Made by a program: the position numbers and the translations under genes. Under the pieces are notes generated by a model. The model saw only the letters and a list, made by a program, of their open reading frames with translations, ran no database searches and had not been told where the DNA came from. Shown here piece by piece: positions 21,841 to 58,700 of a DNA stretch of 64,000 bases (position 1 is its first letter; each line of letters opens with the position of its first letter). The stretch comes from Chthoniobacteraceae bacterium (GTDB lineage: Bacteria > Verrucomicrobiota > Verrucomicrobiia > Chthoniobacterales > Chthoniobacteraceae). The DNA lies in contig CANIWM010000012.1 of assembly GCA_947471505.1 (NCBI GenBank), positions 15,867-79,866 of the forward strand, given 5' to 3'.

Positions 21841-24192
21841 ATGAAAAACTCCATCCTTTGCACGTCGTTTGCCCTTTCCACTTTGGCCTTCGCGGGTTCG
21901 CCGAATAATTCACTCATCACGCCCGGCGCGGGTCAGCGCGGGACGGAGGTGGAGGTCGTCTTGAGCGGCGCTCGCCTGATGGATGCGCGGTCGCTCCTCT
22001 TTAATGAGCCCGGCATCGAAGTCGTGAGCGTGGCGGAGGCGGAGGCGGGGAAGTTTAAGGCGAAGCTGAAAATCGCCGCCGACGCACGGCTCGGCGAATA
22101 CGTCTTCCGCGCGGTGACAAGCTCCGGCATCGCGGATACGCGGCTCTTTTATGTAACGCCATACCCCGTGCAGAAGGAGGCGGATGAGGATAAGGCGGAC
22201 CCGTATAAAGTGCAGGCGGTGCCGCTTGGCGTGACGATCTACGGCTCGACGCCGGGGGAGGACCAGGACCATTTCGAGGTCGAGGTGAAGAAGGGCCAGC
22301 GGCTCTCGGCGGAGGTGATCGGCATCCGGCTTTCCACCCAGCAGCAGTATGATGCCTACATGACCATCACGAAGGCCGACGGCACGACGTTGGCGGAGAT
22401 GGACGATTGCGCGTTCACCCGGCAAGACCCGGCACTGAGCATCATCGCGCCGGAGGATGGGAAGTATCGCGTGATGATCAAAGAGACGACAAACAGCGGG
22501 AGCGGGCCGTGCAATTACCTCCTGCACATCGGCACGCATCCGCGCCCGTATGTCATCTTTCCCGGCGGCGGACAGGCGGGCACGGAGGTGAAAGTGCAGA
22601 TGCTTGGCGACGCAAGCGGGCCCTTTGAGCAGACGGTAAAGCTCCCTGCCGCGCCCGACACGCGCCTCGAAGTGATCGCGCAAAAAGACGGCCTCGCAGC
22701 GCCGCAGTCGAACTTCATGCGCGTATCCGCTTTTGGTAATGTGCTGGAAGCCGAGCCGAACAACGAAATCGCCAAGGCCACCGCCGCTCCGGGGCCGCTG
22801 CCGCTGGCGTTTAACGGAATCATTCAGGAAAAAGGCGACGTTGATTTCTTCAAGTTCACCGCCACGAAGGGCGCAGTGTTCGATTTCAAAGTTCACGCTC
22901 GTTCACTGCGCTCGCCGCTCGATTCCGTGCTCTCCATTCACGATGCGAAAGGCGGACAGCTCGCGGCGAACGACGACCAAGGAGGCCCCGATAGCGTTCA
23001 ACGCTGGACGGTGCCAGCCGATGGCGACTACTTCGTCGCCGTGAAGGATCAGCTTGGCCGTGGCGGCCCGCTCTTTACCTATCGCGTGGAGGTTTCGCCG
23101 CCGCAGGCGGGGCTCTTCGGCTACCTGCCCGACATGGTTATTAACAGCTCGCAAGAGCGCCGCGCCGTGCCAGTGCCCAAGGGCAACCGCTACTCCACGC
23201 TCGTCCGTGTGCGCCGAGCGGACGTGGGCGGCGACGTCATCGTAGAGCCTAAAGACCTCCCCGCAGGTGTGACTGTCGCGACGACGAATATGGACAAAAC
23301 CGTGGACACAATCCCGATGGTCTTCGAGGCCAAAGCGGACGCACCCACGGTGCAAAAGACCTTCACCCTTTTGCCCAAACTCGCCGAGCCGCCAGCCGGC
23401 TCGAACATCGTCTCCAAAGTGGACCATCGTGTGGAAGTCACCGAGAACGGCAACCAACGCTCTTATTACGGAGTAGATGAAGACACGCTCGCCATCGCGG
23501 TGACGGACGAAGTCCCCGTCACCCTAGAGCTTCACCAGCCCAAAGTGCCGCTACTCCAATCCGGCTCCATGAATCTGAACGTCGCCGTGAACCGCAAAGC
23601 AGGAGCCGACGGCAAACCGCTCTTCAACGGCCCCGTGCAAGTCCAGCTCCTTTACACCCCGCCGGGCGTCGGACAGCCGGGCGTCGTCACCATCCCCGAA
23701 GGACAAAACCAAGGTGCGATCACCATCAGCGGTCAAGGCAACGCACCGATTTCGAAATGGCAACTCGCGGTGAACGGCTCCGTGGACCTCGGCAAAGGCG
23801 CGACGTGGATCAGCACCGGCCTCGTGCTCATGGAAATCGCACCGCCCTTCGTAAACGGCACGCTCGTCCGCACCTACATTGACCAAGGCAGCGAGGGCGG
23901 CATGACGATGAAGCTCGACCAAAAGACCCCCTTTGAAGGCAAAGCGAAAGTCGCCCTGCTCGGCCTGCCCCAAGGCGTCACCGCCGAGGAGAAGGAAATC
24001 ACCAAAGACGACAAAGAAGTGCGCTTCGTCCTCAAAGCGGGGCCCGACGCCCAAGTCGGCCAGCACAAGACCGTCATCGCCTCGTTCACCTTGATAAAAG
24101 ACGGCGAGCCCATGACGAACACCATCGCAGGCGGCGGCATCCTCCGCGTGGACAAAGCAAGCGCCGCCCCGAAAGTCGCCGAAGCGAAGTAG
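21841..24192 (+). CDS. large secreted protein with pre-peptidase C-terminal (PPC)-like beta-sandwich domains
   Basis: Signal peptide MKNSILCTSFALSTLAFAG and repeated PPC-like blocks (EPNNEIAKATA...GDVDFFKF...; DQDHFEVEVKKGQRL). 783 aa. Confidence 0.65.
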   Translation: MKNSILCTSFALSTLAFAGSPNNSLITPGAGQRGTEVEVVLSGARLMDARSLLFNEPGIEVVSVAEAEAGKFKAKLKIAADARLGEYVFRAVTSSGIADTRLFYVTPYPVQKEADEDKADPYKVQAVPLGVTIYGSTPGEDQDHFEVEVKKGQRLSAEVIGIRLSTQQQYDAYMTITKADGTTLAEMDDCAFTRQDPALSIIAPEDGKYRVMIKETTNSGSGPCNYLLHIGTHPRPYVIFPGGGQAGTEVKVQMLGDASGPFEQTVKLPAAPDTRLEVIAQKDGLAAPQSNFMRVSAFGNVLEAEPNNEIAKATAAPGPLPLAFNGIIQEKGDVDFFKFTATKGAVFDFKVHARSLRSPLDSVLSIHDAKGGQLAANDDQGGPDSVQRWTVPADGDYFVAVKDQLGRGGPLFTYRVEVSPPQAGLFGYLPDMVINSSQERRAVPVPKGNRYSTLVRVRRADVGGDVIVEPKDLPAGVTVATTNMDKTVDTIPMVFEAKADAPTVQKTFTLLPKLAEPPAGSNIVSKVDHRVEVTENGNQRSYYGVDEDTLAIAVTDEVPVTLELHQPKVPLLQSGSMNLNVAVNRKAGADGKPLFNGPVQVQLLYTPPGVGQPGVVTIPEGQNQGAITISGQGNAPISKWQLAVNGSVDLGKGATWISTGLVLMEIAPPFVNGTLVRTYIDQGSEGGMTMKLDQKTPFEGKAKVALLGLPQGVTAEEKEITKDDKEVRFVLKAGPDAQVGQHKTVIASFTLIKDGEPMTNTIAGGGILRVDKASAAPKVAEAK

Positions 24193-24198
24193 GGCACT

Positions 24199-24891
24199 TC
24201 ATTTCCCCGTGACACGCCGGTAAAACCGAATCCCCTCAATCCTGCTCCCGTACTCCTTCAGCGGGTAAATGCCGCGTCCTTCCGCAGTGCCGGGGTCGCA
24301 CGTCAGATAGTCGTAGCCGTCCTTCCCACAGATGACCACGAAGTGAGTGCCGTCGGGCGATTTCAGCTTCGCGATGACGGGATTGCCTGATCGCAGATTC
24401 AGGTCAATCAGCATGTAGCTCGGCAAATCCTCGTAAGCCTTTTCGATCTTCCCCTCGCTGAGTTCCGCCGCCTTTTCCCACACGATCCAGCCATTTCCCA
24501 CGTAGCCATCATGTTCCGTGAGATACTGGTTCAGCCGCGCCGGGTCGGTGTCGAATCCGTAAGCCGCGAACACCATCGCCGCACTAGCCACCGCGCAGCC
24601 TTCCGCGCCGAGTGTGGCTTCGGTTTTGCCGAGTTTATCCGTGCGCCATCGCGCATCACTCTGGCGAAAGATGGGCACTTTCAGCTCCAGTCGAGGCTGC
24701 TGATAAAGCCCGCCGCTCGCTTCGCACGGAGCGACTGCGCGCCACTCTGCATCCCAGCGTTTCCAGCGAAACCACCCAAACACGATGCTCCCCGCTATGG
24801 TGATGAAAATCACGGCGAGCGTGATGCGCAGGCTCTTCTGCGCGGGTCGGCGATTCGGTGTAGGCTCTAGCATTTCTCTCACTCTGAACAC
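24199..24891 (-). CDS. membrane-anchored C39-like cysteine peptidase domain protein (Peptidase_C39_2/BtrH-like)
   Basis: N-terminal TM helix (ITLAVIFITIAGSIVFGWF), then QSDARW...GAEGCAVASAAMVFAAYG (catalytic Cys context) and THFVVICG (His). Last gene of the five-gene operon; overlaps the upstream gene by 13 nt. Confidence 0.6.
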   Translation of the reverse strand: MFRVREMLEPTPNRRPAQKSLRITLAVIFITIAGSIVFGWFRWKRWDAEWRAVAPCEASGGLYQQPRLELKVPIFRQSDARWRTDKLGKTEATLGAEGCAVASAAMVFAAYGFDTDPARLNQYLTEHDGYVGNGWIVWEKAAELSEGKIEKAYEDLPSYMLIDLNLRSGNPVIAKLKSPDGTHFVVICGKDGYDYLTCDPGTAEGRGIYPLKEYGSRIEGIRFYRRVTGK

Positions 24892-25829
24892 CGGAGCAGA
24901 ACCTTGCCAGCCCGCTTCGACTGCTGCGCGTGCGCGAGAGCCTGCGCGATTTCCGTGAGCGGATAGGTCGCCTCTATCGGTGTCGAGATGATGCCCTTCC
25001 GCAGAAGCTCGAATAGCTCATCGAAAAGCGCCGCGCGCTGCTCCGCCGAAGCCCGCGCATACCACCGCGTCACCCAAAAACCTCGCCACACGATGTCGTT
25101 GAAAATGAGCAGCCCATTGGGAACCTTGAGCGGCTGCCGAGCCATCGCGCCGTAAGTCACGATGGTCCCACCATCCGAGAGCCGCCCCGCCAGTCGCACC
25201 GCGCTATCGCCACCGACCGCATTTAGCGCCAGCCGCACCGGGAGCTCGCCCGGCTCATCCAAAAACACCGCATCCGCGCCCTCCGCCAACAGCTCGTCCA
25301 CCAACTCCGCGCGCCGCACCACATTCGCAGATCGCCAGCCGTAATGCCGACACATCTGGATGACACACCGCCCCACCGCCGAGTTCGCCGCATTTTGCAA
25401 AACCCATTCGTTCGGCTCCAGCCGCACAAACTCCCGCAACATGCACAGCGCAGTCGCCGGGTTGATCCGCAGCATCGCCGCCTGCGCGAGCGGAACATCG
25501 TCTGGCACGCGCACCAGCTCCGCCGCACAAACATTCCCCGCCTCGCGCCACGTGCCGAAACGATGCGGCAAGAGTACGCGCGTCCCCGCGTCGAATCCCT
25601 CGCCTGATTCTTCGACGACGCCTACACCCTCCACGCCCGGGACGCCGCGCAACTCAGGCCGCACGGGATATTTCCCCTCCAGCACATTGATGTCCGCAGG
25701 ATTGATCGGCGCAAAGAGCACGCGCACGCGCACGTCGCCCGGCGCAGGTGGTGCAAGCTCGACCTCGCAGCAGCGTGCGACTGCCGCTGGTTCACCGTGT
25801 TCGGAAAGGAGAATCGCTTTAGTTTTCAT
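24879..25829 (-). CDS. MDR-family zinc-type/quinone oxidoreductase (enoyl reductase-like)
   Basis: GroES-like N-terminal domain plus Rossmann NAD(P)-binding fold (LQNAANSAVGRCVIQ). Its start overlaps the stop of the giant upstream gene (TGATG). Confidence 0.75.
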   Translation of the reverse strand: MKTKAILLSEHGEPAAVARCCEVELAPPAPGDVRVRVLFAPINPADINVLEGKYPVRPELRGVPGVEGVGVVEESGEGFDAGTRVLLPHRFGTWREAGNVCAAELVRVPDDVPLAQAAMLRINPATALCMLREFVRLEPNEWVLQNAANSAVGRCVIQMCRHYGWRSANVVRRAELVDELLAEGADAVFLDEPGELPVRLALNAVGGDSAVRLAGRLSDGGTIVTYGAMARQPLKVPNGLLIFNDIVWRGFWVTRWYARASAEQRAALFDELFELLRKGIISTPIEATYPLTEIAQALAHAQQSKRAGKVLLRCSE

Positions 25830-28800
25830 CAGTCTTTCGAGGTCTGTTTTGCTTTGTCGGCTTCAATGAGCTCCCAAATCTGCCGGAGCGTCTCGGTAGA
25901 AATCGACACCTCCCGCAGTGCAGCACCCATATCCTCATTGGACGCTTTGGGCGGAGGCGGTGAGGATGGTGGCGTCATGAAAAGGGTGATCGGCTGCGCG
26001 AGGATGGGTGCGGGTTTGCTGAGAGCTTTTGCAAAGACACCGCCGAGTTCGCCGAGCGAGTCTTGCAGCGCGGTGAGTCGCTCGACAACCTGCACCATTG
26101 GGTCTTTGCCGTCGGCCCCCCGGAAGAGCTGGTTCTTGCGGAACGTCTTTTTGATTTCCTCCCAGCGTGCGGATTCCTCGGGCGTGATGGTGCCGGTGAG
26201 TTCCTTGAACTTCAGCAAGTTTGCTTCGGTGCCGGTGGTGAGCGTCTGCGCTTCGTTGCGGTAGTAAGTTTGCAGCAGCGATTCGAGTTCTGCATCGTTC
26301 ATCACGGGCGAGATTTTCTCCGCGAGTCGGCCCATGTTGCGGTAGCTGCCTTGCAGCTTGAATGCGGGCTCCGTGCGGAATGCGTCGGACTGCGCCGCGC
26401 TGCGGATGTATTCCTCGTTCACTCGCAGCACGACATCACGGGCGCGGATGAGCTTCTTCATCACGCCGAGAAATTCCGCCTGCTCGACAGGCGACCAATT
26501 GCTCTCAAAGTCCGCGCCTTCCGTGCTGCCAGTCTCGGCGATCTTGAGCACGGCGAGGATGTCTTGTTGCGAACGCGCAGCGAGCCGGGCGAGTGTAGGG
26601 TTCGATCCCGCTGCGTTTTCGAGGTAGCTGGATTTAAAAGCATCCGCGTGCGCTCCGACGACATCGCCGAGATTGTACGTGTCAGCACGATTCGCGAGCA
26701 TGTCGGGGATTTTGAACTTCTCGCCGCTCTCGGTGTACGGGTTTCCGGCCATCACCACGATGACCTTTTTGCCCCGCAAATCCCACGTCTTCGACTTGCC
26801 GCGCCACACGCCCTCGATGCGCCGCGAGCCGTCGCACAGCGAGATGAACTTCTGCAAAAACTCCGCGCTGAGATGCTGGATGTCGTCGAGACAGACCATC
26901 ACGTTGTCGCCCATCTCGAACGCGAGCCCGAGCTTCTCCATCTCATCGCGAGCCGCAGCATTCGGAGCCTCTGTCGGGTCGAGCGAAGTGACGCTGTGCC
27001 CAATCGCAGGACCGTTGATCTTCATAAACACGATGCCGAGCCTGCTAGCGACATACTCGACGAGCGTAGTCTTCCCATAACCCGGTGGCGAAATGAGCAG
27101 CAGCATGCCCATGCGGTCCGTGCGTTTCGCGTCGCCCGCCGCGCCGATTTGCTTCGCGAGATTGTCGCCCACGAGCGGCAGATACGCGGAGTCAATGAGC
27201 CGGTTGCGGATGAAACTCGTGAGCACCTTCGGTTTAAACCCATCGAGCTTCAGCCGCTCCCGCGCCGCCTCCAGCAGCGTGCGCTTTAGCGAAACGAAGC
27301 GTGTGTAAAGCGGGACGACGTTCGTTTCGTGGCAGCGCATCCGTGCGGAGAAATCGAGGTAGTCGAGCCGAAGCACGCCATTCGAGATGCGTGAGTGCGA
27401 GCCATTCATCCCGGCAAGTTCGCGCACCGCCGAGGAATGGATCGTCGCTGCAACCGTCGAGTTGCGCAGGGTAAGCGCCGCCGCCTCATCCAAAAAAAGA
27501 TGCTCACCCGCATGAGCACGCAGCCAATTCCGAATGAGAGAAAACTCAGCGTGCATGTCGGCGGATACAGCCTTGCGAGCGTCTTTGAAAGCACCCGCGC
27601 CAGCCCGCTCAACGAGGTGCGCGTGGAAGCTATCAACCAGCGTCACGGCCTCCGGTGCAGCCGGGAAAACTCCATCGCCGGAGAGGACGTGGAAAAGAAA
27701 CTCAGCCGCCGGTCCATCAAGTCCATTCTGTCCATCTCGTCCATAAACTGGATGGACGGCATGGACGTTATGGACGATCTCCCCCAACAGCTCCGCCGCC
27801 GGAGCCTGCTGCTCAAAGAACCGCCCCATCGCTCCAAAGCCTTTGAGCTTCGCCGAGAGCAGTGCCTTCGCCTCGCCGTCTGGCAGAGCCGCCCAAGCAA
27901 GCACCGCCTGCGTGCGAGCCTGCGTATCGTAGCGAAGCAGTCCGAGCGTGCGCCGCATTTCCACGACCGCTTCCACGATCTTTGCAGCGTCCAGATCGTG
28001 GACGCCCTTAATGTAGCCCTCGCCAAGCCGAGTCGCGGCGAACTCGGTTGTGGTGCAGGCGACCTCGCCTGCATCTGTCCTGACCGGCGACTCGCCGGAA
28101 CTTCGGGTGGGTCGCCCGTGCGACTGCTGCAGGCGAGTCGCCTGCGCCACTACCAGCCACGCCAGCCACTCGGCGCGATAAACCTCCGCAGTCTCTGAAA
28201 CGCTCTCCAAGCTCCACACAGCCTTCGTTTCCGCAAAGGCTGCATCCTCGATAGGCTCGAAGAAATTCGTCCCGGTGATGTGCAGGCACATCGCATCGCC
28301 GCGCTGAACGATGGTGAGGTCCAGCTCCTGCGTGTTGACCAAAAACTGATGCCGCCCGAGCTGAATCGCGCCGCTGCCTCCGGCAAATAGATCGCGCCGG
28401 TCCTTGAATTGCCGCACCGCATCTTCACGGATGGTTTTCAGTCGGCTGCCGAGGTCGTCGGCCTTCGTGGAATCGCCGAGCGCGACCAACTGCGCGGTAA
28501 GGTCGCGCACTTTCTCCACCATCATATCGCTGGCGAAGTAGGCGTTGATTTCATCCAGCCCCGGCAGGCTATCCGCACGGTGCTTGATGCCCTTCAGGAT
28601 GCGCTCCGCCGCTGACATCAAGCCATTCGCACGACGATTGCGGGCTTCGATGAGTTCGAGTTTACGAGACTCAAAAGCCCCGGCAAAAGCGGTGCGCTTG
28701 TCCGCTAGTTCGCCGACAAATTCCTCGAAGTCCGCAAACCGCGCTTCGAGTTCTTCGACCTGAACCATCAGCTTGTTTAGGAACTCATCGCACTTCTCCG

Positions 28801-30910
28801 GCGTCGCGCTGAGGTCGAGATAGTTTGCGAGCGCCTGATCCAGCAGCCGCTGCTGGGACGCAAATTCCGCCACCGCTTCCGTGCCGCGCAAATCGCGGAT
28901 GCGCTGCCGCAGCCCCGACCTCGCCTGATTCAGCGTGGCGTAAATGCCGGAGACGTCTTCGATTATCAGCGTCGTCTCCGTGGCGTCGGAGATTTTGAGG
29001 TTGCCGACCGTCTCCACTAGCAAATCGAGGTCTTTGGCTGCGGCGGCGATTTCCTCGTCGAGCTTCTGCGCATCCGCGACCTTCGGCATCTTCGGAACCG
29101 TTTCGCGCAGGATGGAAACCTTGGCCCGCAGTGGGTCGAGCGACTGCGGCGCGAGGAGAAATTGCACCGTGCGCTCAGCCAGCGCGGTGCTCGTGGCGGC
29201 GACCTCCTGCTCTGTTTTATCCACGAGTGCAGCGTCCACGTAGCGCAGTTCCCTGAGCGAAATCAGCTCGCCTCGCGCTGACCGTAGCGCCGCCAGCTTC
29301 TCTACAAAGTGCCCGATTTGATCAAAAGCCTGCGTCTGCAGCGCCCGCAAAATCGCTGTCGCTTTTTCCACCACGCGCTGCGTCTCGGTCGCGGTGTTGA
29401 GCTTGATCGCCGTGACCTTGTCAAACTCCGCCAGCGCCGCTGCCGCCGTCTCTTTAATCGCAGCCAGCGGTTCGCGCAGCGCAAACGCTTCGGCACGGTC
29501 CAGCCAGAAATACGTGTCGAGGATGTCCGTAGTTCGCTTCACCAAATCGAGGTAGAGCCCAGCGTAGCTGTCGTCCTTGCCGAGCAGCGTCAATATTTCA
29601 CCGCACTCGGCCATTGCTCGCACGACGGTCGGATTTCCGAGTTTAAAAAGGTAGCTGTCGTTCTTCGTCGGCGGTTGCCAATCCGCGCCGACGAAAGGCG
29701 TCTGCCAAATCTGCACGACGTGGTGTCTCTGCGGCTCCGGTCCAGCGCGGAAGACCGCCAACTCGCCGCCCTCGAACAGCGAAAAACCGTGACAGATGAG
29801 CGGCGTATCGCACTGCCGGGCGATGACGTTGTAGCCGAACAGCACGTAAGTCCCGCTGTCGCGCTCGTAGAACACGAACAGCGTGTCTTCGCCGTTGGGC
29901 GAGGCGATGCGCTTGTGGAAAACGAGCCCTTCCAGCGCCGTCTCGAACTCCTTGTGCTCGCCGCTTTGCAAGTAGTAGCCGCGTGGGTGGATGATGCCGT
30001 GACCGTCCGGCAGCAACACGCACGCCTCCTCAAGCGAATCAATGCGCAGCACCTCGCGGAGCTTTTCGTTGAAGACCAAATAGCGCGTCTTTTTTTCCTG
30101 ATACGGGCGGATGCGCAGCAGGATCAAATTGCCCAGCGAGGCGTGGAAAATCTCCGCGTCATCAAGCGTTTGGTCGCGCTGCTCGACGGGCTCGGAGTAA
30201 ATGCCAGCGCCGCTCGCCGTGTTATCCTCCACTTTCACCGTGAGGTCGCCGCCGACGCACTCGACGAACACCCGGTCCTCGATGCTGATGTGCGGATGCT
30301 GCCCCGCGCGGTGCTGCTCGCGCGTCGCGCGCTTCCACTCAAATTCGTGCTGCGGCGGGTAGAGATATTCGTGGTCGAACCGATTGCCGAGATACCGCAC
30401 CGGCGAGCCATCGCAAAGCCACTTACACGTCTTCACGTCCGTCACCGTCTTGCCCACGCGAAATTCCATGAACATGTGCGGCCCACGCACCGAGAGCTTC
30501 GAGAGCGCCGTGCCTTTGTAATAGCGGTAGAGCGACTTGAAATCCGCCTCAAATTGAGCATCCGCCAGCTCATCCAGCGGAAGTGCGGAAAAGGCGCGGT
30601 CCTTGTACTGGTAAAGTGCGAAGACATCCGCAAGCTGCGTCTCACTGCGCAGCCCAAGTTGCACATTGTAGCCAAAAACAAACCGTCCACCGCCGATGTG
30701 GCGCATGTCGCGAGGCGTGCAACTATTCTCCGTCGTGAGCCGCTCCGTAGCCACTAACGCTGTCGGTATCGCGCCAAACACATCCTGTCGCGAGGCGTTC
30801 AATTTCCCGAGTCGTTCGCGCAGCTCGGAGCCGTGCGAGTTCAGCCGGGCCCGAAGGATTTCGTAGGTGCCTTGCTCGAGTTTCTGCGGCGGAGCGTCGT
30901 TATCAGCCAT
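25829..30910 (-). CDS. giant (1693 aa) protein with a single C-terminal AAA+ ATPase module (AAA_5 / MoxR-McrB-dynein-like); N-terminal ~1300 aa uncharacterised
   Basis: Walker A LLLISPPGYGKTTLVEYVA, Walker B VMVCLDDIQH, sensor-1-like VVMAGNPYTESGEKFKIPDMLANRADTYNL. Long coiled-coil-prone segments. One uninterrupted ORF with consistent codon usage. Confidence 0.8.
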   Translation of the reverse strand: MADNDAPPQKLEQGTYEILRARLNSHGSELRERLGKLNASRQDVFGAIPTALVATERLTTENSCTPRDMRHIGGGRFVFGYNVQLGLRSETQLADVFALYQYKDRAFSALPLDELADAQFEADFKSLYRYYKGTALSKLSVRGPHMFMEFRVGKTVTDVKTCKWLCDGSPVRYLGNRFDHEYLYPPQHEFEWKRATREQHRAGQHPHISIEDRVFVECVGGDLTVKVEDNTASGAGIYSEPVEQRDQTLDDAEIFHASLGNLILLRIRPYQEKKTRYLVFNEKLREVLRIDSLEEACVLLPDGHGIIHPRGYYLQSGEHKEFETALEGLVFHKRIASPNGEDTLFVFYERDSGTYVLFGYNVIARQCDTPLICHGFSLFEGGELAVFRAGPEPQRHHVVQIWQTPFVGADWQPPTKNDSYLFKLGNPTVVRAMAECGEILTLLGKDDSYAGLYLDLVKRTTDILDTYFWLDRAEAFALREPLAAIKETAAAALAEFDKVTAIKLNTATETQRVVEKATAILRALQTQAFDQIGHFVEKLAALRSARGELISLRELRYVDAALVDKTEQEVAATSTALAERTVQFLLAPQSLDPLRAKVSILRETVPKMPKVADAQKLDEEIAAAAKDLDLLVETVGNLKISDATETTLIIEDVSGIYATLNQARSGLRQRIRDLRGTEAVAEFASQQRLLDQALANYLDLSATPEKCDEFLNKLMVQVEELEARFADFEEFVGELADKRTAFAGAFESRKLELIEARNRRANGLMSAAERILKGIKHRADSLPGLDEINAYFASDMMVEKVRDLTAQLVALGDSTKADDLGSRLKTIREDAVRQFKDRRDLFAGGSGAIQLGRHQFLVNTQELDLTIVQRGDAMCLHITGTNFFEPIEDAAFAETKAVWSLESVSETAEVYRAEWLAWLVVAQATRLQQSHGRPTRSSGESPVRTDAGEVACTTTEFAATRLGEGYIKGVHDLDAAKIVEAVVEMRRTLGLLRYDTQARTQAVLAWAALPDGEAKALLSAKLKGFGAMGRFFEQQAPAAELLGEIVHNVHAVHPVYGRDGQNGLDGPAAEFLFHVLSGDGVFPAAPEAVTLVDSFHAHLVERAGAGAFKDARKAVSADMHAEFSLIRNWLRAHAGEHLFLDEAAALTLRNSTVAATIHSSAVRELAGMNGSHSRISNGVLRLDYLDFSARMRCHETNVVPLYTRFVSLKRTLLEAARERLKLDGFKPKVLTSFIRNRLIDSAYLPLVGDNLAKQIGAAGDAKRTDRMGMLLLISPPGYGKTTLVEYVASRLGIVFMKINGPAIGHSVTSLDPTEAPNAAARDEMEKLGLAFEMGDNVMVCLDDIQHLSAEFLQKFISLCDGSRRIEGVWRGKSKTWDLRGKKVIVVMAGNPYTESGEKFKIPDMLANRADTYNLGDVVGAHADAFKSSYLENAAGSNPTLARLAARSQQDILAVLKIAETGSTEGADFESNWSPVEQAEFLGVMKKLIRARDVVLRVNEEYIRSAAQSDAFRTEPAFKLQGSYRNMGRLAEKISPVMNDAELESLLQTYYRNEAQTLTTGTEANLLKFKELTGTITPEESARWEEIKKTFRKNQLFRGADGKDPMVQVVERLTALQDSLGELGGVFAKALSKPAPILAQPITLFMTPPSSPPPPKASNEDMGAALREVSISTETLRQIWELIEADKAKQTSKD

Positions 30911-30964
30911 TAGAGAAAATTCGAGAACCAGCGAGTGAGTAGCGGGAGGCTTGGGCGTACATCG

Positions 30965-33037
30965 TTAGGCCTTTTTCCCCGCCGCCGTAAGGGGTTTCTC
31001 CGCGAGGCCGAGGCGGTGGGCTTGGCCGAGCAGCATGGTGAGCAAGCCTTTGGTTTTACCATCTTCGGCGATGTCGGCCATTTTGCTGAGGGCGGCCGCT
31101 ACGCTGAGGTTCTTCACATCTTCGCTCGTGAGGCCAAATTGACTTACGAACCCTTTGAGCTGCGTGTGGAAATACTCGGGGTCGCTGTTGAAGAATGTCT
31201 CTTTTATGTCGGTGAGAGTGGCGCTGCTGCTTACGAGTTTGTCGAACGATTTGCCGGCGGTGACTGCGCCAGTGATTCGGTCGAGGAAGGCCAGGTCGCC
31301 GCCGACGATGTCGATCTTCGCGTGCTTGAGGGCTTCGCTGACGACGGTGGCTTGGCTGCTCGCGATGTCGCCTTGGGTCTTGATTCCGGCAAGCTCAATG
31401 TCGCGCTCCTTGTTGAGGCGGAGTTTGAATTCCTCGTGCTCTTTGCCGACGGAATCGAACAGCTTCATCGCGGCGGCTTTTTTGGTAATTCCCTCAGCTT
31501 CGGCACTTGCTTTGAGCTGCATGACTTCCGCTTCGGCGGTGCCTTGATCGCGGACGGCGCCAGCTTTGGCTTGCTGGACTTGCGCTTCGGCAAGTCCGGC
31601 AGCAGCAGCGGTCGCGGTTTCGCCAGCGGCAAGGGAGATTTTCGCTGCGGACATCTTACAGGCTGATTGCTCTTCGGCGTCCGCGAGGATCAGCATTTCT
31701 TTGGATTTGCGGTCGGCGGCTTCGCGGGAAGCATCGGCGCGGGTGACGGTGGTCACGCGGTCTTGCTCGGCTCGCAGTTCAGCGGCCTTCTTCGCGGCCT
31801 CCGCTCCTTTGATGTCCTTGATGAGCACCTGCTCGGCTTCTTGCTCGGCGGCGGTGATGGCGACCTTCTTTGCACGGTCGGCAGTGGCGAAAGCCTCGGT
31901 GTCCTTAATACGCTGTTGCTCGACGACGACGGTTTTCTCCACTTCGAGACGTTGGCGGATCACGTCTTGGATCGCTTTCTTCTCTGTCTCGACGGCCTTC
32001 TCTTTATCGATTTGTGCTAGGGTCACGATGCGCTCGCGTTCGGTGACTTCGATTTGCCGGTCCCTCTCCACGCGCTCTTTCTCCACGGCGTCGGTGCGCT
32101 CTCGGTTTCGGGACGCGACGATTATTTGGCGGTTCTTGTTTTCCTCGGCGATTTGCAGTTCTTCCTCCACGGCGATGCGGGCCTGTTCGCCTTTGAGTCG
32201 GCCTTCTTCTTGTACTTTTTTCGACTCTGCATCTTCCCGGGCGGTGATGCTTGCGATCTCGCGCTTCTGCTTTTGCTCGGCTTCGGCGAGTTGCTTCTGC
32301 ATTTCCAAAATAGCCTCGCGGCCCTCCACGTTTTGCTTGGTGATTGTCTTCTCGCGCTCGTTGTCGATCTTGTTGGAGAGCACCTTTTGTGTGGCCGTTA
32401 GCTCGGTGATTTTCTTGATGCCTTCGGAGTCCAGAATGTTGTCGGGGTTAAGCAAAGACAGCGGCGTCTGTTCCAGATAATCAATCGCCACATCGTCGAG
32501 CACGAAGCCGTTCAAGTCCGTGCCGACGGTTTTCAAAATGCCCTCCTTCAGTTTGTCGCGGCTGTTGTACAGCTCGACGAAGTGGAACTGCCGCCCGACC
32601 GTTTTCAGCCCTTCGGAAAACTTTGCGTCGAACAATTCGATGATCGCCACCTGCGATGAAGCACGCTCACAGCCGACGGACTGTGCGACCTTTAGCACGT
32701 CTTCGGGCGTTTTATTTACTCGGACAAAGAACGCCACTTTGATGTCGGCGCGCATGTTATCCATACAGATGAGGCCGTTTTTTCCCTGCCGGTCGATCTC
32801 CACGCGTTTGACGGAAATATCTATCGTCTGGCAGCGGTGGATGACGGGAAAGACGACCATTCCTGAAAAGGAAACCTTCGTTCCGCCGACGCCGTTGCGG
32901 ACGAGCGCCTGACCTTGGTCCACCTTGCGGAAGCAGGTGAGAACGGTGAATAAGCCGCCCGCGACGATGAGGACGAGGGCGATGACTGAGACGTAAGCGA
33001 CGCTCTCTCCGAGCGACGCTGCAAGTAGTGTAATCAT
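30965..33037 (-). CDS. flotillin family protein (SPFH/band 7 domain, YqiK-like) with long coiled-coil C-terminus
   Basis: N-terminal TM helix, SPFH domain (QGQALVRNGVGGTKV...), then a ~300-aa Glu/Ala/Lys-rich coiled coil and a flotillin C-terminal region. 690 aa. Confidence 0.85.
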   Translation of the reverse strand: MITLLAASLGESVAYVSVIALVLIVAGGLFTVLTCFRKVDQGQALVRNGVGGTKVSFSGMVVFPVIHRCQTIDISVKRVEIDRQGKNGLICMDNMRADIKVAFFVRVNKTPEDVLKVAQSVGCERASSQVAIIELFDAKFSEGLKTVGRQFHFVELYNSRDKLKEGILKTVGTDLNGFVLDDVAIDYLEQTPLSLLNPDNILDSEGIKKITELTATQKVLSNKIDNEREKTITKQNVEGREAILEMQKQLAEAEQKQKREIASITAREDAESKKVQEEGRLKGEQARIAVEEELQIAEENKNRQIIVASRNRERTDAVEKERVERDRQIEVTERERIVTLAQIDKEKAVETEKKAIQDVIRQRLEVEKTVVVEQQRIKDTEAFATADRAKKVAITAAEQEAEQVLIKDIKGAEAAKKAAELRAEQDRVTTVTRADASREAADRKSKEMLILADAEEQSACKMSAAKISLAAGETATAAAAGLAEAQVQQAKAGAVRDQGTAEAEVMQLKASAEAEGITKKAAAMKLFDSVGKEHEEFKLRLNKERDIELAGIKTQGDIASSQATVVSEALKHAKIDIVGGDLAFLDRITGAVTAGKSFDKLVSSSATLTDIKETFFNSDPEYFHTQLKGFVSQFGLTSEDVKNLSVAAALSKMADIAEDGKTKGLLTMLLGQAHRLGLAEKPLTAAGKKA

Positions 33038-33729
33038 GATTGTGGTAGTGGATTGGCTGTGATGAAGAAGATGCGTTTGTCCCCGTCCTCGCGTACGATT
33101 ACGGCGAGGTCGCCTTTTGTGAGCACGGCATCGTTGAGCGTGCGGACGTTGATCAAAAGCGAAGCGCCGTTTGTGGAAATCTCCGCCTGACCAAACTCCG
33201 GCGTGGCCTCCATCGAGACGATGCGGCAGTGCTGGCCGGTGACTTCTACTTTCTCATCATACTGCTTGTTGAGTAGTCGGAAGAGCGGCTTCAGCGGCAT
33301 CGTCGCGTAGCGGGTAATTACGGCGGAGATGCACACATTTATTGCCAGAAAGAAGGCGGTCAAAATCACGGAGCCTCCTGTCCAATAAGCATTGGCGAAG
33401 ATGCCAAAAGCCCACATCGCCAAGATGAGGACGCTCAAGACGACCATCACGGGCACGTCGCCGAGGTTGACGAATTTCAGCACATTACCGTACCACGATC
33501 CGCTGTCCGAGTGGTGCCCGTGGTGATGGCCTTCGACGTTGTGGTGCATTGTGTCCACATCGACTTCGTGGTCAATGTGCGCGTCGTGGCTGACATCGAG
33601 GTCTGCATCCGGGTGCGGGCCACCGAGAGCACCCAACGCGACGAGTAACCAATAAAGCATCACGAGTACGAGCATCACGGTGAAGGGCAGGTTCACTAGA
33701 CGAAAAGATTCGTGCAGCAGCTCGTTCAT
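33034..33729 (-). CDS. NfeD/YqiJ-like membrane protein (TM helices plus C-terminal OB-fold) with His-rich loop
   Basis: Start MNELLHESF. Two or more TM helices and a C-terminal beta-barrel segment (GQAEISTNGASLLINVRTLNDAVLTKGDLAVIV). Stop overlaps the flotillin start (ATGA), the canonical NfeD-flotillin pairing. Confidence 0.65.
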   Translation of the reverse strand: MNELLHESFRLVNLPFTVMLVLVMLYWLLVALGALGGPHPDADLDVSHDAHIDHEVDVDTMHHNVEGHHHGHHSDSGSWYGNVLKFVNLGDVPVMVVLSVLILAMWAFGIFANAYWTGGSVILTAFFLAINVCISAVITRYATMPLKPLFRLLNKQYDEKVEVTGQHCRIVSMEATPEFGQAEISTNGASLLINVRTLNDAVLTKGDLAVIVREDGDKRIFFITANPLPQS

Positions 33730-33875
33730 AGCTGGAACGCGGATGTTTGGAGGTCGAAGTTCATGTTTTACCGATGCAAGCTTCCTGCCTTTAGCGCGGC
33801 AACCACAAATGGAAACTAGTCGGCGGTAGATTCTTCGATTTTCAAAGCGCCCCGTCTCCGAGTAGCGTGCGGGCA

Positions 33876-35159
33876 ATGACCGCAACTCTTCTCAAAAATG
33901 GCCGCATTCTGGACCCTGCAAACAAGCGCGACGAGGTGGGCGACTTGCTCATCGTCGGCGATAAAATCGCGCCGCTCTCGGCACTGGCGGGGCTGGCTGA
34001 AAAGCCCACGGTCGTTGATTGCACGGGGCTGCTCGTCACGCCGGGGTTGATTGATTTGCACGTCCATCTGCGCGAGCCGGGGCAGTCTGCCAAGGAGACG
34101 CTTGCGACAGGGACGGCTTGCGCGGCGGCGGGTGGTTTTACGTCGGTCGTGTGTATGCCGAACACGTCGCCCTCGGTGGATAGCGCGAGCGTTGTGACGT
34201 GGATTATCGAAAAAGCGAAGACGGATGCGGTGGTGAATGTATTCCCGACCGGCGCGCTGACGAAGGGCATCGCGGGTGAGGAACTCGCGCCGATTGGGGC
34301 GATGAAAAAGGCGGGCATCGTGGCGCTTACGGATGACGGCCACTGCATCCAGAACCACGAAATCATGCGCCGCGCTTGCGAGTACGCGCGGATGTTTGGG
34401 CTGACGGTGATGGACCATTGTCAGGACTATAATCTTGTCGGCAAGGGCGTGATGAATGAAGGCCGCGTCTCGGCGGAACTCGGCTTGCCGGGCTGGCCCG
34501 CGATCGGGGAGGAAATCATCGTCGCTCGGAATGCGCTGCTTGCGGAGCTGACGGGTACGCCGATCCACTGCCAGCATCTCTCCGCTGCCGGGAGCGTGCG
34601 CATTCTGCGCGAAGCGCGGGCGCGCGGCGTGGCGCTGAGTGGGGAGATTTGCCCGCACCATATCGCGCTGACAGATGAGACGATTCGGGGGTTCAACACG
34701 AACTTCAAAATGAACCCGCCGCTGCGCTCGCAGGAGCATGTGGAGGCGCTCATCGAGGGGGTTGCGGATGGCACTATCACAGTGTTGGCGTCGGACCACG
34801 CGCCGCATTGTGGGTTTGAGAAAGAGGTGGAGTTTGACCTCGCGCCTTTTGGAATTCTCGGACTGGAGACGGAGTTGGGGCTCTTCCTCGACATCCTCGT
34901 CCACAAGCGCAAAGCCATAGACCTCGCGCGGCTGGTCGAGCTTTACACCATCAATCCTGCGCGCCTGCTCGGGCTGGATCGCGGGACGTTGAGTGAAGGG
35001 GCGGCGGGGGATGTGACGGTCATCAATGCCGGGCTGGAGTGGACGGTGGATAAAGAGCAGAGCGCCTCGCGCAGCAGGAATAATCCGTTCCACGGATGGG
35101 AGCTGAAAGGGCGAGCGGTGAGGACGATTGTGGGTGGGCGGACGGTGTGGAGCCTGTAG
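33876..35159 (+). CDS. pyrC: dihydroorotase
   Basis: Metal-binding HVHLREPG, DxH motif, amidohydrolase fold and the conserved catalytic Asp block (VLASDHAPH). Confidence 0.9.
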   Translation: MTATLLKNGRILDPANKRDEVGDLLIVGDKIAPLSALAGLAEKPTVVDCTGLLVTPGLIDLHVHLREPGQSAKETLATGTACAAAGGFTSVVCMPNTSPSVDSASVVTWIIEKAKTDAVVNVFPTGALTKGIAGEELAPIGAMKKAGIVALTDDGHCIQNHEIMRRACEYARMFGLTVMDHCQDYNLVGKGVMNEGRVSAELGLPGWPAIGEEIIVARNALLAELTGTPIHCQHLSAAGSVRILREARARGVALSGEICPHHIALTDETIRGFNTNFKMNPPLRSQEHVEALIEGVADGTITVLASDHAPHCGFEKEVEFDLAPFGILGLETELGLFLDILVHKRKAIDLARLVELYTINPARLLGLDRGTLSEGAAGDVTVINAGLEWTVDKEQSASRSRNNPFHGWELKGRAVRTIVGGRTVWSL

Positions 35160-35174
35160 CTCTGGGCAGAGAAA

Positions 35175-35203
35175 AAGCCGCTCGGTGAAGAGCGGCTTTC
35201 TCT
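35175..35203. terminator. bidirectional intrinsic terminator between pyrC and the convergent response regulator gene
   Basis: Perfect 10-bp stem AAAGCCGCTC / GAGCGGCTTT with a 6-nt loop, followed by a T-run on the minus strand (TTTTTCTCT) and a weaker U-tract on the plus strand. Confidence 0.6.
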
Positions 35204-35232
35204 GGGTTTTGGGTATTGTAGGGTGAAGTGCC

Positions 35233-35619
35233 TTACGCGGCTTGCTCGGCTGCTTTGGGGGCTTGGTTCAGCACGCGCATGAGGGCGGAGTAGATTTCTG
35301 ATGGGCCGAGGCCTTTGCTGACGTAGCCGTTGGCTCCGGCCTTGCGGGCGGCTTGCATAGCTTCCTCATCGTAGCCAAGGCCGGTGAACATGACGATTGG
35401 CACGAGAGAGAATTTCTCCCGAATCATCGAGATGAGTGAGAGTCCGTCGATTTTCGGCATCCCGATGTCGAGGATGATGGCGTCGCACGGATTGAGGTCG
35501 AGCCAGCTCAGTGCTTTAGTTGGGTCGGTGAGTGAAGAGCATCCGTGACCTTTACTGCGGAGGTAAGTGGTCAGGAAGCGATTAAGTAAGCGATTGTCGT
35601 CAACAACTAGGAAGTTCAT
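35233..35619 (-). CDS. single-domain response regulator (CheY-like receiver)
   Basis: Receiver-domain residues: acidic pocket MNFLVVDDN, phospho-acceptor DAIILDIGMP and conserved Lys in GYVSKG. 128 aa with no output domain. Confidence 0.8.
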   Translation of the reverse strand: MNFLVVDDNRLLNRFLTTYLRSKGHGCSSLTDPTKALSWLDLNPCDAIILDIGMPKIDGLSLISMIREKFSLVPIVMFTGLGYDEEAMQAARKAGANGYVSKGLGPSEIYSALMRVLNQAPKAAEQAA

Positions 35620-55643: not shown

Positions 55644-55768
55644 ATCCCGCGAACAGATTGAGGCTTCCGGGGTGCTGTAGAATAAACGAACAGTGACGAA
55701 CAGGTGACGGAATAGAGGTTGCTGGCCGGGGTTCTGTCGGTATGGTTCCACGCCAAACTTCACCCGTC

Positions 55769-58700
55769 ATGATCCAGAAATACCTTAAGATTATCGCGCT
55801 CTTTGCGCTCACGACTCTCGCCTCTGCCAATCCTCTCATCACCGAGTTTATGGCGGATAATAAGGGCTCCATTACTGATGAAGATGGGGCTTATTCGGAC
55901 TGGATCGAGGTCCACAACCCCACGGCCACGCCGATCAATCTGAACAACTATACGCTCACGGATACGCTGAACGATCCAGCCCCGTGGCGCTTTCCGGTTC
56001 AGACGCTTGCGCCGGGAGACTTCATCGTGATCTGGGCGTCTGGTAAGAACCGCTCGACGGCTGGCGCACCGCTCCACACAAATTTTTCACTAGCGAAAGG
56101 CGGGGAGTATTTGGAGCTGGCGCTGAACCCGCTGCCGAGCGGACCGAAGACGGTTTTGCAATCTTGGAACCCGTATCCGTCGCAGGCGGAGAATGAGTCT
56201 TACGGCATTCAATTTACGATCGCGACGCTCGTGGCGCAGGGCGCGTCGTCGAAGTATTTTGTGCCGACGAGTAACAGCGTGGATGCGACTTGGCGGGATA
56301 CAGGCTTTGTGGACACGTCTTGGACGACGGGCACTACGGGCATCGGCTTCGGGCTGCAGGTGCCTGGGATGACGGTGCGGCAGGTTTTTAAAAACGGAAC
56401 GATTGGTGGGCTCACGGATACGGATGCGCTGCTCGCCGCGCCGACGGGATCGCCGTTGATTTTATCGGATACCACGGTCATCGCGCAGACGGTGAACTAT
56501 CTCGGCAACGGCGGCGACGGGCACTATGGCTTGAATGCAGTGCCGCCACTCGGGACGGGAGAGCACTACGTGATGCGGGTGACGGGGACTTTCAGCACAA
56601 CGGCGAGCGGCTACCACACTTTCGGGATTAACTCGGATGACGGGGGACGCATCCGCGTGGATGGCGGCACGGTGATGACGGACGACACTGGGCACGGAGC
56701 AGCGGACCACATGGGGAACGTTTTCCTCACGGCGGGCTCGCACACGTTTGATGTGGTGTTTTTCGAGATGACCGGCGGTGATGAGCTTGAGTTCTACTAT
56801 GCGCCTGGGCTGCTTTCGACGTGGAGCACGACGATGAAGCTCGTGGGCGATACGGCCAACGGCGGCCTAGCCGTCTTTACCACGCCGCCGAGCAACGGGG
56901 GCGGGACGGTGGTGGCGACGAATGTGCAGGGTCCGATGCTAAACTCGCGGACTTCGTGCTACGTCCGCACTCCGTTTACGGCGGCAGGTCCGGGCGCTTA
57001 CACGGCGGCCTCGCTGAAGATGCGCTACAACGACGGGTATGTGGCATATTTGAACGGGACGAAAATCGGGGAGAAAAATGCGCCCGCGTCGCCCGCCTTC
57101 AACTCCGTAGCGACAGCGACGCGGACGGATGCGCAGTCGCTCACGCCGGAGGCGATCAACGTCTCGGCGTATCTGCCGGGTCTCATCAATGGAACAAACG
57201 TGCTGGCGCTTCACGGGATGAATGTCACGGCGGCCAGCGCGTCGTTCCTTATCCTGCCAGAGCTGGTCGTCGGCACAGCCAATCCCGGTGCGCAGAACGT
57301 GTATTATGACCTCGCGAAGACGACGCCGGGCGCGATCAACGGCGCGTATTCTCTGCTCGGGAAAGTCGCGGATACGCAGTTCAGCCATGTGCGTGGCTTT
57401 TATACCTCGCCGTTTAATCTCACGATCTCCTCGCTCACTTCCGGCGCGGAGATTCGCTACACCACGGACGGCTCCACGCCGACGGCCAGCAATGGCACCG
57501 TCTATACTACGCCTATCGCCATCAGCGCCACGACCGTCATCCGTGCGGCTGCGTTCAAGACTGGCTACGAGGCGACGGATGTGGATACGCAGAGCTACCT
57601 CTTCCTCAACGACGTGATCACCCAGTCATCCACCGGCTTGCCGCCCACGAACTGGCCCGCCACCAGCGGCACCGGGCAGGTGCTCGACTACGGGATGGAC
57701 CCGGACATCGTGAACCACACGGACCCGAATCTCGGCGGCGCGACCTCCGTGAAGAACGCACTCACCGCCGTCTCCACGATCTGCGTCACTACCGATTTGC
57801 CGAACCTCTTTAATATGAACGGCGGCACGACCGGCATCTACTCCAACCCCGGCAGCCGTGGCTTCGCGTGGGAGCGGCCTGCATCCATCGAGATGATGAA
57901 TCCGCCCGACGCGCTGCATCCGAACGGGACGAGCGAATTTCAAATCACGGCGGGCATCCGCATTCGGGGCGGCTACTCCCGCTCGACGGACAACCCGAAG
58001 CACGGTTTCCACCTCTTTTTCCGCAACGACTACGGCGATGGGAAATTGAAGTATCCCATGTTTGGGCGGCACGGCACAGAGGAGTTCGACCAGATTGATT
58101 TTCGCACTTCGCAGAACTACTCGTGGAGTTTTGGCGGCGATGGAAATAACACTTTTCTCCGCGAGGAAAGCACGCGCCTCGCACAGCGCGACATGGGCCA
58201 CCAATACGGGCGGCTCCGCTACTTCCAGCTCTACATCAACGGTATCTACTGGGGCCTCTACAACACCGAGGAGCGCACGGAGGCGAGCTTCGGCGAGACG
58301 TATTTCGGTGGCGCGAAAGACGATTACGATGTGGTGAAAGGCGAGCAGGATTCCGGCTACGTCACCGGCGTCACCGATGGGAATCTCACCGCTTGGACGG
58401 ACCTCTGGAACAAGTGCAAAGCCCACCTCGCCAGCCCGACGAACGCGAACTACTTCAAGCTCATGGGCCTCGCCAGCGATGGCGTGACGCCGACTGCGGA
58501 CCCGACACTGCTCGATGTGGACGACATGATCGACTACCTCATGCTCACTTTCTGGACGGGAAATCTGGACGGCACGACGAGCGCATTTCTTGGCAACAAC
58601 AACGCGAACAATTGGTTCGGGATGCGCAATCGGCTCGGCACGAAAGGCGGCTTTCACTTCATGGCGCACGACTTCGAGCACACGTTCTTCAACGTGAACG

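Follow-up and report, generated by a model that had tools for sequence, protein, structure and literature searches.

In a stretch of 64,000 nucleotides (nt) from a Chthoniobacteraceae bacterium (contig CANIWM010000012.1 of assembly GCA_947471505.1; hereafter the window), we detected five tightly packed minus-strand genes (24199-33729) encoding a YqiJ/NfeD-type membrane protein, a flotillin, a giant ATPase, a medium-chain dehydrogenase/reductase (MDR) and a C39-like cysteine peptidase. Comparison across genomes divides them into two conserved modules that lie side by side in one narrow Verrucomicrobiaceae lineage. The first (33729-25829), here called the triad, consists of the YqiJ, flotillin and giant genes, and we consider, with moderate confidence, that its role is the ATP-driven remodelling of flotillin/PspA assemblies in envelope stress. 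The second (25829-24199) is the MDR-C39 pair, which has no conserved relation to the triad. An earlier reading of the same letters, made without database searches (the sequence-only reading), had placed five closely spaced genes here and treated them as one machine; the open reading frame (ORF) list and translations return all five at the same coordinates, and the single machine is not supported by the neighbourhoods described below. The genes, in order of transcription, are the following.

33034..33729, minus strand: YqiJ/NfeD-type membrane protein of 231 amino acids (aa), gene 1 of the triad, with three predicted transmembrane (TM) spans followed by a soluble, beta-rich part at the C-terminus
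30965..33037, minus strand: YqiK-type flotillin of 690 aa, assigned from the match of an orthologue profile to YqiK and from TM prediction
25829..30910, minus strand: giant soluble ATPase of 1693 aa, gene 3 of the triad, assigned from Pfam domains, with no TM span
24879..25829, minus strand: MECR/Etr1-type 2-enoyl thioester (acyl carrier protein/coenzyme A, ACP/CoA) reductase of the MDR superfamily, 316 aa, assigned with phmmer and Pfam
24199..24873, minus strand: stand-alone C39-like cysteine peptidase of 224 aa with an N-terminal TM anchor, assigned from Pfam, motifs and TM prediction

The flotillin and the peptidase each have a single predicted TM span, N-terminal in both, and the MDR protein, like the giant, has none. 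A scan of the five proteins against NCBIfam gave nothing above the curated cut-offs.

The triad is strongly conserved as a unit in at least six phyla. A scan for relatives of the giant, with one genome per species, returned at least 578, of which the best 80 loci (48-89% identity) were analysed; these belong to Verrucomicrobiota, Planctomycetota, Bacteroidota, Desulfobacterota, Myxococcota and Calditrichia. Neighbours were counted by tblastn with the window proteins, upstream at the 62 loci with at least 3.5 kb of sequence ahead of the giant and downstream at the 61 loci with at least 2 kb behind it. Flotillin and YqiJ genes are both found upstream of the giant, on the same strand, at 58 of the 62 loci. 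All-against-all clustering of the 1195 ORFs from the 80 loci recovered only the giant, the flotillin and YqiJ as widely shared clusters, with no family-wide conservation 3' of the giant. Of four distant members, 30-33% identical over the N-terminal domain, three keep the order small TM protein, band-7 protein, giant, and one of these three has a PspA gene directly downstream. The sequence-only reading had coupled an NfeD/YqiJ-flotillin pair to a giant with a single AAA+ domain and had named homologues usually lacking flotillin/NfeD neighbours as the observation that would speak against it; at these loci the coupling is the rule.

The first gene matches the Pfam family YqiJ_N (9.2e-8, 32.7 bits against a cut-off of 23) and is collinear over its full length with E. 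coli YqiJ (BLASTP 2e-5). The flotillin contains an N-terminal TM anchor, a divergent SPFH/band-7 domain (residues ~40-200), an E/A/K-rich coiled-coil (~220-540; E, A, K, R and Q account for a fraction of 0.56-0.70 in residues 251-550) and a C-terminal domain that is conserved. Pfam gave no match at all for the window protein, Band_7 included, and 27 of its 28 orthologues lack a Band_7 match even at E values up to 1, the remaining one having a match. A PDB sequence search with the flotillin alone found nothing, and the orthologue profile gave a marginal match to QmcA (E 0.039). When the profile of the 28 orthologues (A1) was aligned to E. coli YqiK, hhalign returned a probability of 100% and an E value of 8.9e-40 over ~410 columns (profile columns 10-435, YqiK 7-421). 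Judged by this profile match, the protein is a divergent YqiK-type flotillin. Its features and the overlapping YqiJ-type gene upstream place the two genes in the YqiJ-YqiK type of NfeD-flotillin module: as in E. coli yqiJK and B. subtilis yuaF-floT, a multi-TM YqiJ-type gene stands directly ahead of, and coupled to, an N-terminally anchored flotillin. The two settings differ in what follows, since E. coli yqiK is followed by sibD/ibsD and the window flotillin by the giant, and the giant-associated flotillins are ~140 aa longer than those of the E. coli/B. subtilis pair type and mostly miss Pfam Band_7. Because they escape this family, neighbourhood surveys based on domains would under-count the association of flotillins with the giant.

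The giant matches Pfam DUF3686 (PF12458) over profile positions 1-448 of 448 (E 7.8e-176, 585 bits against a cut-off of 25), DUF7902 (5.4e-23, 81 bits) and a single AAA domain (residues 1270-1395; 4.4e-7, 30.8 bits). The sequence-only reading was right to see one C-terminal AAA domain; the better fit is PF00004, not AAA_5 as it had proposed. Relatives of the giant, which form at least 4511 clusters at 90% identity, share the architecture of DUF3686, DUF7902 and one AAA domain, and identity across phyla is ~50% over ~1700 residues. The DUF3686 domain itself was found in 722 of 1.84 billion clusters at 50% identity, and in full-length proteins (~1550-2036 aa) it is always N-terminal. The DUF3686 giants are thus a single-architecture family. 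A PDB sequence search with the giant returned generic AAA+ P-loop regions only.

We modelled the giant with AlphaFold2 (AF2) in two parts, residues 1-1190 (mean predicted local distance difference test, pLDDT, 79) and residues 1130-1693 (pLDDT 78, model m44e5bd569a4e), and computed column conservation from 74 aligned giants. The predicted regions are the following.

29507..30826, minus strand: DUF3686 (giant residues 29-468), with a predicted N-terminal helix ahead of a beta-propeller of ~26 strands (51-403)
30155..30238, minus strand: propeller loop (residues 225-252), near-invariant, a candidate partner-binding element
28391..29653, minus strand: helical rod (residues 420-840, with DUF7902 at 590-672), resembling spectrin-like three-helix bundles
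27461..28369, minus strand: linker from rod to ATPase (residues 848-1150), with a small beta domain (848-886) and a helical domain (912-1150)
26561..27163, minus strand: AAA+ core (residues 1250-1450), assigned from motifs, the AF2 model and Foldseek

In the model of residues 1-1190, a helix (13-45) precedes the beta domain, and long helices occupy residues 420-840, ahead of the two small domains of the linker, where conservation is lower (0.43-0.50). Column identity reaches 0.81 over residues 201-250. The propeller loop within and just after this stretch carries invariant K226, E228, N230, T231, G234 and G236 and the run DQTLDDA, and pLDDT is below 50 for residues 225-247. As it is nearly invariant yet modelled with low confidence, we regard it as a candidate interaction element that may bind a partner or serve in regulation.

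Conservation within the giant is highest in the AAA+ core (column identity 0.88), whose active site is intact: Walker A (GYGKTT, residue 1277), Walker B (LDDIQH, residues 1341-1346, window 26873-26890), the sensor-1 Asn in MAGNP (1387) and the Arg in ANRAD (1406) are all invariant in the 74 giants. A beta-hairpin at residues 1363-1378 (model strands 1364-1369 and 1372-1377) stands ahead of the strand at 1383-1389, and the best Foldseek matches of the AAA+ model are RuvB, LonP1, Ycf2-FtsHi, NorQ/CbbQ, ClpA and HslU. The model, together with these top matches, all of which are members of it, assigns the giant to the pre-sensor-1 beta-hairpin superclade (RuvB/Lon/Clp-D2/HslU, MoxR). Foldseek with residues 1-1190 (window 27341-30910) gave weak likenesses to IFT-A (8fgw_A, 2e-6), Elp1, CORVET/HOPS and nucleoporin, with TM-scores of ~0.1, so that the resemblance to eukaryotic coat and tether proteins built from a beta-propeller and a helical rod is, on this model, one of architecture only. 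Coat-like proteins have been reported earlier in bacteria of the Planctomycetes-Verrucomicrobia-Chlamydiae group.

The best solved relative of the MDR protein is human MECR (7ayc, phmmer against PDB, E 8.7e-62, residues 3-304), followed by the fungal Etr1-type 2-enoyl thioester reductases 1h0k and 1gu7 (3.5e-34), and Pfam detects ADH_N and ADH_zinc_N_2. By sequence, it is an enoyl thioester reductase of the MECR/Etr1 type that would act in lipid synthesis, not a generic quinone reductase. The window protein is similar to the mitochondrial MECR/Etr1p reductases over residues 3-304, but differs from them in being bacterial, in being paired with a C39-like peptidase and in scoring below every curated NCBIfam cut-off; its function is a prediction. 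The last protein matches Peptidase_C39_2 (7e-7) and Peptidase_C39 (7.5e-7) above cut-off, has candidate catalytic residues Cys93 (AEGC), His177 (THFVV) and Asp193 (CDPG), and has no sequence relative in PDB. It shares its domain and its Cys/His/Asp motifs with the bacteriocin-processing, papain-like C39 peptidases, in which the domain is classically the N-terminal part of an ABC exporter, whereas the window protein is stand-alone with a single TM anchor, and no ABC transporter is fused to it or adjoins it, in the window or in the sampled contexts. It is therefore best called C39-like. Its homologues (~1178 clusters, ~225 aa) come, where a source name is given, from Verrucomicrobiota (Chthoniobacteraceae). 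Pfam and the PDB search uphold both identities proposed by the sequence-only reading, and its "redox enzyme" can be narrowed from an MDR reductase to an enoyl-ACP/CoA reductase.

The distribution of these two genes differs from that of the triad. They follow the giant at two of the 61 loci (L001 and L007), which are the closest relatives of the window (88-89% giant identity), and at L008 (85%) they are already absent and other genes lie downstream. Five contexts of C39 homologues were sampled: four contain an orthologous MDR gene directly upstream and neither giant nor flotillin, and the fifth has C39 alone, with no MDR. The pair is thus found without the triad in other Verrucomicrobiota, where identity is 65-73% for MDR and 59-78% for C39. 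In L084, L085 and L092 the order is clpC-like, MDR, C39, plsY, gpsA, with phospholipid-synthesis genes adjoining the pair and an AAA+ gene again directly ahead of it; in L082/L083 the pair lies past a divergent cation-efflux gene. Since the pair occurs elsewhere without the triad and follows the giant at only two of the 61 loci, the five-gene block is a recent juxtaposition of two modules.

The junctions within the block were read from the sequence. The YqiJ stop overlaps the flotillin start (ATGA, 33034-33037), the flotillin stop (TAA, 30965-30967) is separated from the giant start (ATG, 30910) by a 54-nt spacer (30911-30964), and the giant stop and MDR start share the A at 25829 (TGATG, a 1-nt overlap). 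These agree with the sequence-only reading; its fourth junction, a 13-nt overlap of MDR and C39, was probably misplaced. The MDR stop is TGA at 24879-24881, and the start of the C39 gene could be GTG 24891 (13-nt overlap), GTG 24882 (4-nt overlap) or ATG 24873 (5-nt gap). We favour ATG 24873, because homologues have 223-226 aa and a 99% identical protein (P0121) has 224 aa, and the junction is probably the 5-nt gap, which is still tight. The overlap of giant and MDR and the coupling of MDR to C39 are kept solely in the lineage of the window, L001 and L007. Scans of the block for promoters and terminators gave counts not above shuffled expectation, and we therefore infer co-transcription of the five genes from gene spacing alone; the two modules are probably co-transcribed in this lineage.

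Twenty-three Bacteroidota loci link the triad to phage-shock proteins. Directly 5' of the triad, on the same strand, they carry genes for CesT_Tir_1 (1e-56) and PspA_IM30 (7e-39), PspA only being detectable at one of them (L065), and at 22 of the 23 there is a divergent gene for an HTH_3 plus Peptidase_S24 protein (repressor). Two more loci, L041 and L048, carry PspA close by on the other strand. The sequence-only reading did not recognise the arrangement as described; it has, however, been in print since 2024. Ravi, Anantharaman, Aravind, Gennaro and colleagues (Ravi et al. 2024, PMC11237479) described from genome comparison an operon of a flotillin, YqiJ and a beta-propeller/coiled-coil/AAA+ protein, with or without CesT/Tir-PspA. 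They further described "abbreviated operons" of flotillin, YqiJ/YuaF and sometimes the ATPase as "more widely distributed", with PspA maybe encoded elsewhere, and their Table S3 includes Dokdonia donghaensis with the same gene order and the divergent cHTH+protease gene. Structure, statistics and experiment are not given there. The window and this operon have the same three architectures in the same order (YqiJ, flotillin, giant), and we recovered the full form in the Bacteroidota relatives. The Dokdonia ATPase is equated with the window giant by identical operon position and architecture in Bacteroidota, not by sequence comparison. The window departs from the full form in lacking both members of the CesT/Tir-PspA dyad within 64 kb, and in having the MDR-C39 pair joined at the 3' end. 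By gene content and order, then, the window triad is a PspA-less abbreviated form of the published operon. Related associations are on record: band-7/FloT/NfeD genes were independently noted beside pspA in Bacteroidota and Acidobacteriota (Popp et al. 2022), and in B. subtilis the recruitment of PspA to the membrane reportedly depends on an SPFH protein (Scholz 2021).

We propose the following working model for the triad. YqiJ and flotillin would together make up an SPFH cage, or a platform, at the inner membrane on its cytoplasmic side; structures of such cages are available for QmcA-YbbJ, HflK/C and flotillin-1/2. The AAA+ domain would bring copies of the giant together, most probably as a hexamer, and the beta-propeller and spectrin-like rod would dock it on flotillin, and on PspA where this is encoded. 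ATP hydrolysis would then drive the assembly, remodelling or disassembly of membrane-bound flotillin/PspA polymers under envelope stress, in a working mode like that of Vps4 on ESCRT-III or of FtsH-HflK/C, without a protease domain; the giant belongs to neither family.

Both comparisons have their limits. With HflK/C-FtsH and with the mitochondrial prohibitin-m-AAA and SLP2-YME1L pairs, the triad shares the genetic coupling of an SPFH scaffold to a ring-forming AAA+ protein at the membrane, which serves us as a working analogy only: the giant lacks a protease domain and a TM helix and carries a 1250-aa propeller/rod extension, the SPFH domain of the window flotillin is predicted to face the cytoplasm, and homology does not extend beyond the AAA+ core. 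In the Vps4/CdvC-ESCRT-III system, whose polymer belongs to the PspA/Vipp1 superfamily, an AAA+ protein is likewise combined with a PspA/ESCRT-III-family polymer as in the full operon, and by this analogy a role of the giant in ATP-dependent turnover of membrane-bound polymers is plausible. The giant differs from Vps4 in having no MIT domain and in grouping with RuvB/Lon/Clp/MoxR-like folds instead of the classical Vps4 clade, and there is no PspA in the window. A bolder version is possible but doubtful: the giant could form a megadalton AAA+ ring that serves as a dedicated motor for flotillin cages (and PspA polymers), coupled in this lineage to the MECR-type reductase and the C39-like peptidase as well, so that platform turnover would be linked to lipid synthesis and protein processing. 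To our knowledge, no dedicated ATP-driven assembly or disassembly motor has been described for flotillins in any organism.

Several points weigh against the remodelling model. The synteny sample is the best-scoring subset, with at least 48% identity, of at least 578 matches. At four loci (L052, L064, which is frameshifted, L070 and L080; ~6% of the informative loci) the giant has neither a flotillin nor a YqiJ gene within 8-10 kb, and a hidden Markov model search found no hidden flotillin within 10 kb of any of them; a distant orphan giant (L087/L088) likewise lacks both and has a PRiA4_ORF3-domain gene upstream. A PspA partner of the window triad is an assumption: tblastn of the 64 kb with Bacteroidota PspA, CesT and HTH-S24 queries gave only matches with E >0.9. 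The Walker B motif reads DD in place of the usual DE in all 74 giants from the six phyla, which may make hydrolysis slow and switch-like. At the position of pore-loop-1 the giant reads GPAIGHSVTSLDPTEAPNA, which is conserved and contains no canonical aromatic-hydrophobic-Gly motif, and the segment past strand beta-2 reads GPAIGHSVTSLDPTEAPNAAARDE, also conserved and without an aromatic, as judged by eye against the known motif and not by structural superposition. The giant thus lacks the hallmark of unfoldases and translocases, and classical substrate threading by it is therefore uncertain. The overlap of giant and MDR kept in L001 and L007 could conceivably reflect functional recruitment of the MDR-C39 pair to the triad in this lineage. 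Finally, the literature search returned no experiment on a giant of this family, and the mechanism of the triad is one that we infer in its entirety.

Because of the Walker B DD and the non-canonical pore loop, a serious rival to the remodelling model is that the giant serves chiefly as a structural scaffold or tether fixed to the membrane by flotillin platforms, its AAA+ domain acting as a nucleotide-controlled switch of oligomerisation and not as a motor. The helical rod of ~420 residues with its spectrin/plectin-like bundles and the weak Foldseek likeness to IFT-A, HOPS/CORVET and Nup coat and tether proteins suit such a role. We nevertheless consider it unlikely, since conservation is highest in the AAA+ core, which, with its invariant sensor-1 and Arg finger, argues for real catalysis between subunits, and since the TM-scores to the coat proteins are only ~0.1. 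The name under which the giant appears in NCBI and Pfam, "DNA repair ATPase" or "ATPase involved in DNA repair", implies another function, and RuvB is indeed among the best structural and sequence matches of the AAA+ core. This likeness is confined to the generic core (residues 1252-1332), however; no accessory domain of the DNA-binding, nuclease or helicase kind turned up with Pfam, NCBIfam or the fold search, its conserved partners reside in the membrane, and we found no supporting literature, which together make a DNA repair function very improbable indeed.

The sequence-only reading had also suggested a conflict or defence module on flotillin platforms. In an anti-phage system of this kind, the giant NTPase would sense infection and trigger a membrane effector. 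The association with PspA, a "phage shock" protein, and with a CI/LexA-like HTH-S24 repressor in Bacteroidota is in line with an anti-phage function, as are the HipA and TelA genes adjoining L091 and, weakly, the variable genes inserted between flotillin and giant (DMP19-like, DUF3800, a Zeta-toxin-like kinase and an Rce1-like protease), which are typical of conflict loci. Yet PADLOC-DB v2 gave, for all five proteins, a sole match of 29 P-loop residues to IetA (E 0.0022), housekeeping genes make up the window flanks, where integrases and other defence genes are absent, a scan of 2.9 million viral contigs found no relatives of the giant, nuclease, toxin and other evident effector domains are missing, and the identity of the giant across phyla is unlike that of fast-evolving defence genes. 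We regard a defence function as improbable. The original proposal, that the five products form one membrane processing or remodelling machine of scaffold, ATPase, redox enzyme and peptidase, can point to tight or overlapping junctions at all four boundaries, to the giant-MDR overlap and MDR-C39 coupling kept in L001 and L007, and to the loose connection of all five with membranes (lipid synthesis, a TM-anchored peptidase, a flotillin). Synteny largely refutes it and leaves it quite improbable: the MDR and C39 genes are gone downstream of a giant of 85% identity, their orthologues stand without the triad in L082-L085 and L092, and the genes that follow the giant are not conserved in the family at large.

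The triad bears on the assembly and turnover of bacterial flotillin/SPFH platforms and on their connection to PspA-type membrane repair; we know of no energy-consuming partner of a flotillin. The triad is attractive for experiments, as the giant is so well conserved in six phyla and almost always follows the YqiJ-flotillin pair; culturable carriers include Pontibacter, Hymenobacter and Rufibacter. The window provides a verrucomicrobial example of the abbreviated operon and not the discovery of the association, to which we add synteny statistics, structure models and the assignment of the AAA+ clade; we also show that the MDR-C39 pair next to the triad is unrelated to it. For annotation, two points matter: we see no basis for the database name "DNA repair ATPase", and flotillins of this type escape Band_7.

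The slot between flotillin and giant, which is 54 nt long in the window, contains differing inserted genes in other phyla and behaves like a variable cargo site in an otherwise rigid operon. The inserts, with positions in their own loci, are the following.

L027:9215-9871: DMP19-like
L020:8636-9799: DUF3800
L075:7691-9169: DUF5687
L046:8966-9817: Rce1-like CAAX protease
L012:9060-9704: Zeta-toxin-like kinase

The C-terminal tails of the giants vary by phylum (examples are window 25832-26050, L010, L038 and L014). Those of Verrucomicrobia have a Pro-rich linker and a terminal helix, those of Planctomycetota are Lys-rich and basic, and the giants of L038 and L014 have repeat-like extensions that appear ankyrin- or TPR-like by eye. 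A conserved tail motif was considered and dropped, as the tails differ by phylum. One relative of 1950 aa (P0087) has HEAT-repeat Pfam domains in addition. Another, of 1711 aa and 53% identity (P0101), comes from a eukaryotic protein set (eukprot g33011.t1) and is probably a bacterial contamination, or possibly the result of a transfer.

At its 5' side the block is bordered by a divergent amidohydrolase/dihydroorotase-like gene identified with Pfam (plus strand, from 33867/33876), and at its 3' side by a convergent gene for a PPC-domain protein, ending at 24192. The YqiJ start was placed at ATG 33729, in agreement with the sequence-only reading; a longer ORF from a TTG, reaching 33885, would enter the divergent gene. 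Between the two lies the following region.

33730..33866, no strand assigned: divergent intergenic region between YqiJ and the amidohydrolase gene, where the operon promoter presumably lies

In 33730-33866 the promoter scan gave no consensus sigma-70 site, and no Rfam family was detected in 23000-35500. A repeat search of the region returned short matches at chance level only. A terminator-like hairpin on the minus strand (24164-24187; 9-bp stem and T-rich tail) lies 12 nt past the C39 stop, within the 3' end of the convergent gene, and a further one (27500-27519, minus strand) lies within the giant coding sequence; the total of such sites is not above shuffled expectation. GC content is 0.556 at 32001-34000, covering YqiJ and the 5' part of the flotillin, compared with ~0.60 in the rest of the window, without a mobile-element signature. 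The window encodes a second ORF of nearly the same length as the giant (55742-60814, plus strand, 1690 aa), which was rejected as a paralogue of it: this unrelated, secreted-type protein contains Lamin-tail (LTD), PA14, CHB_HEX_C and CotH kinase domains.

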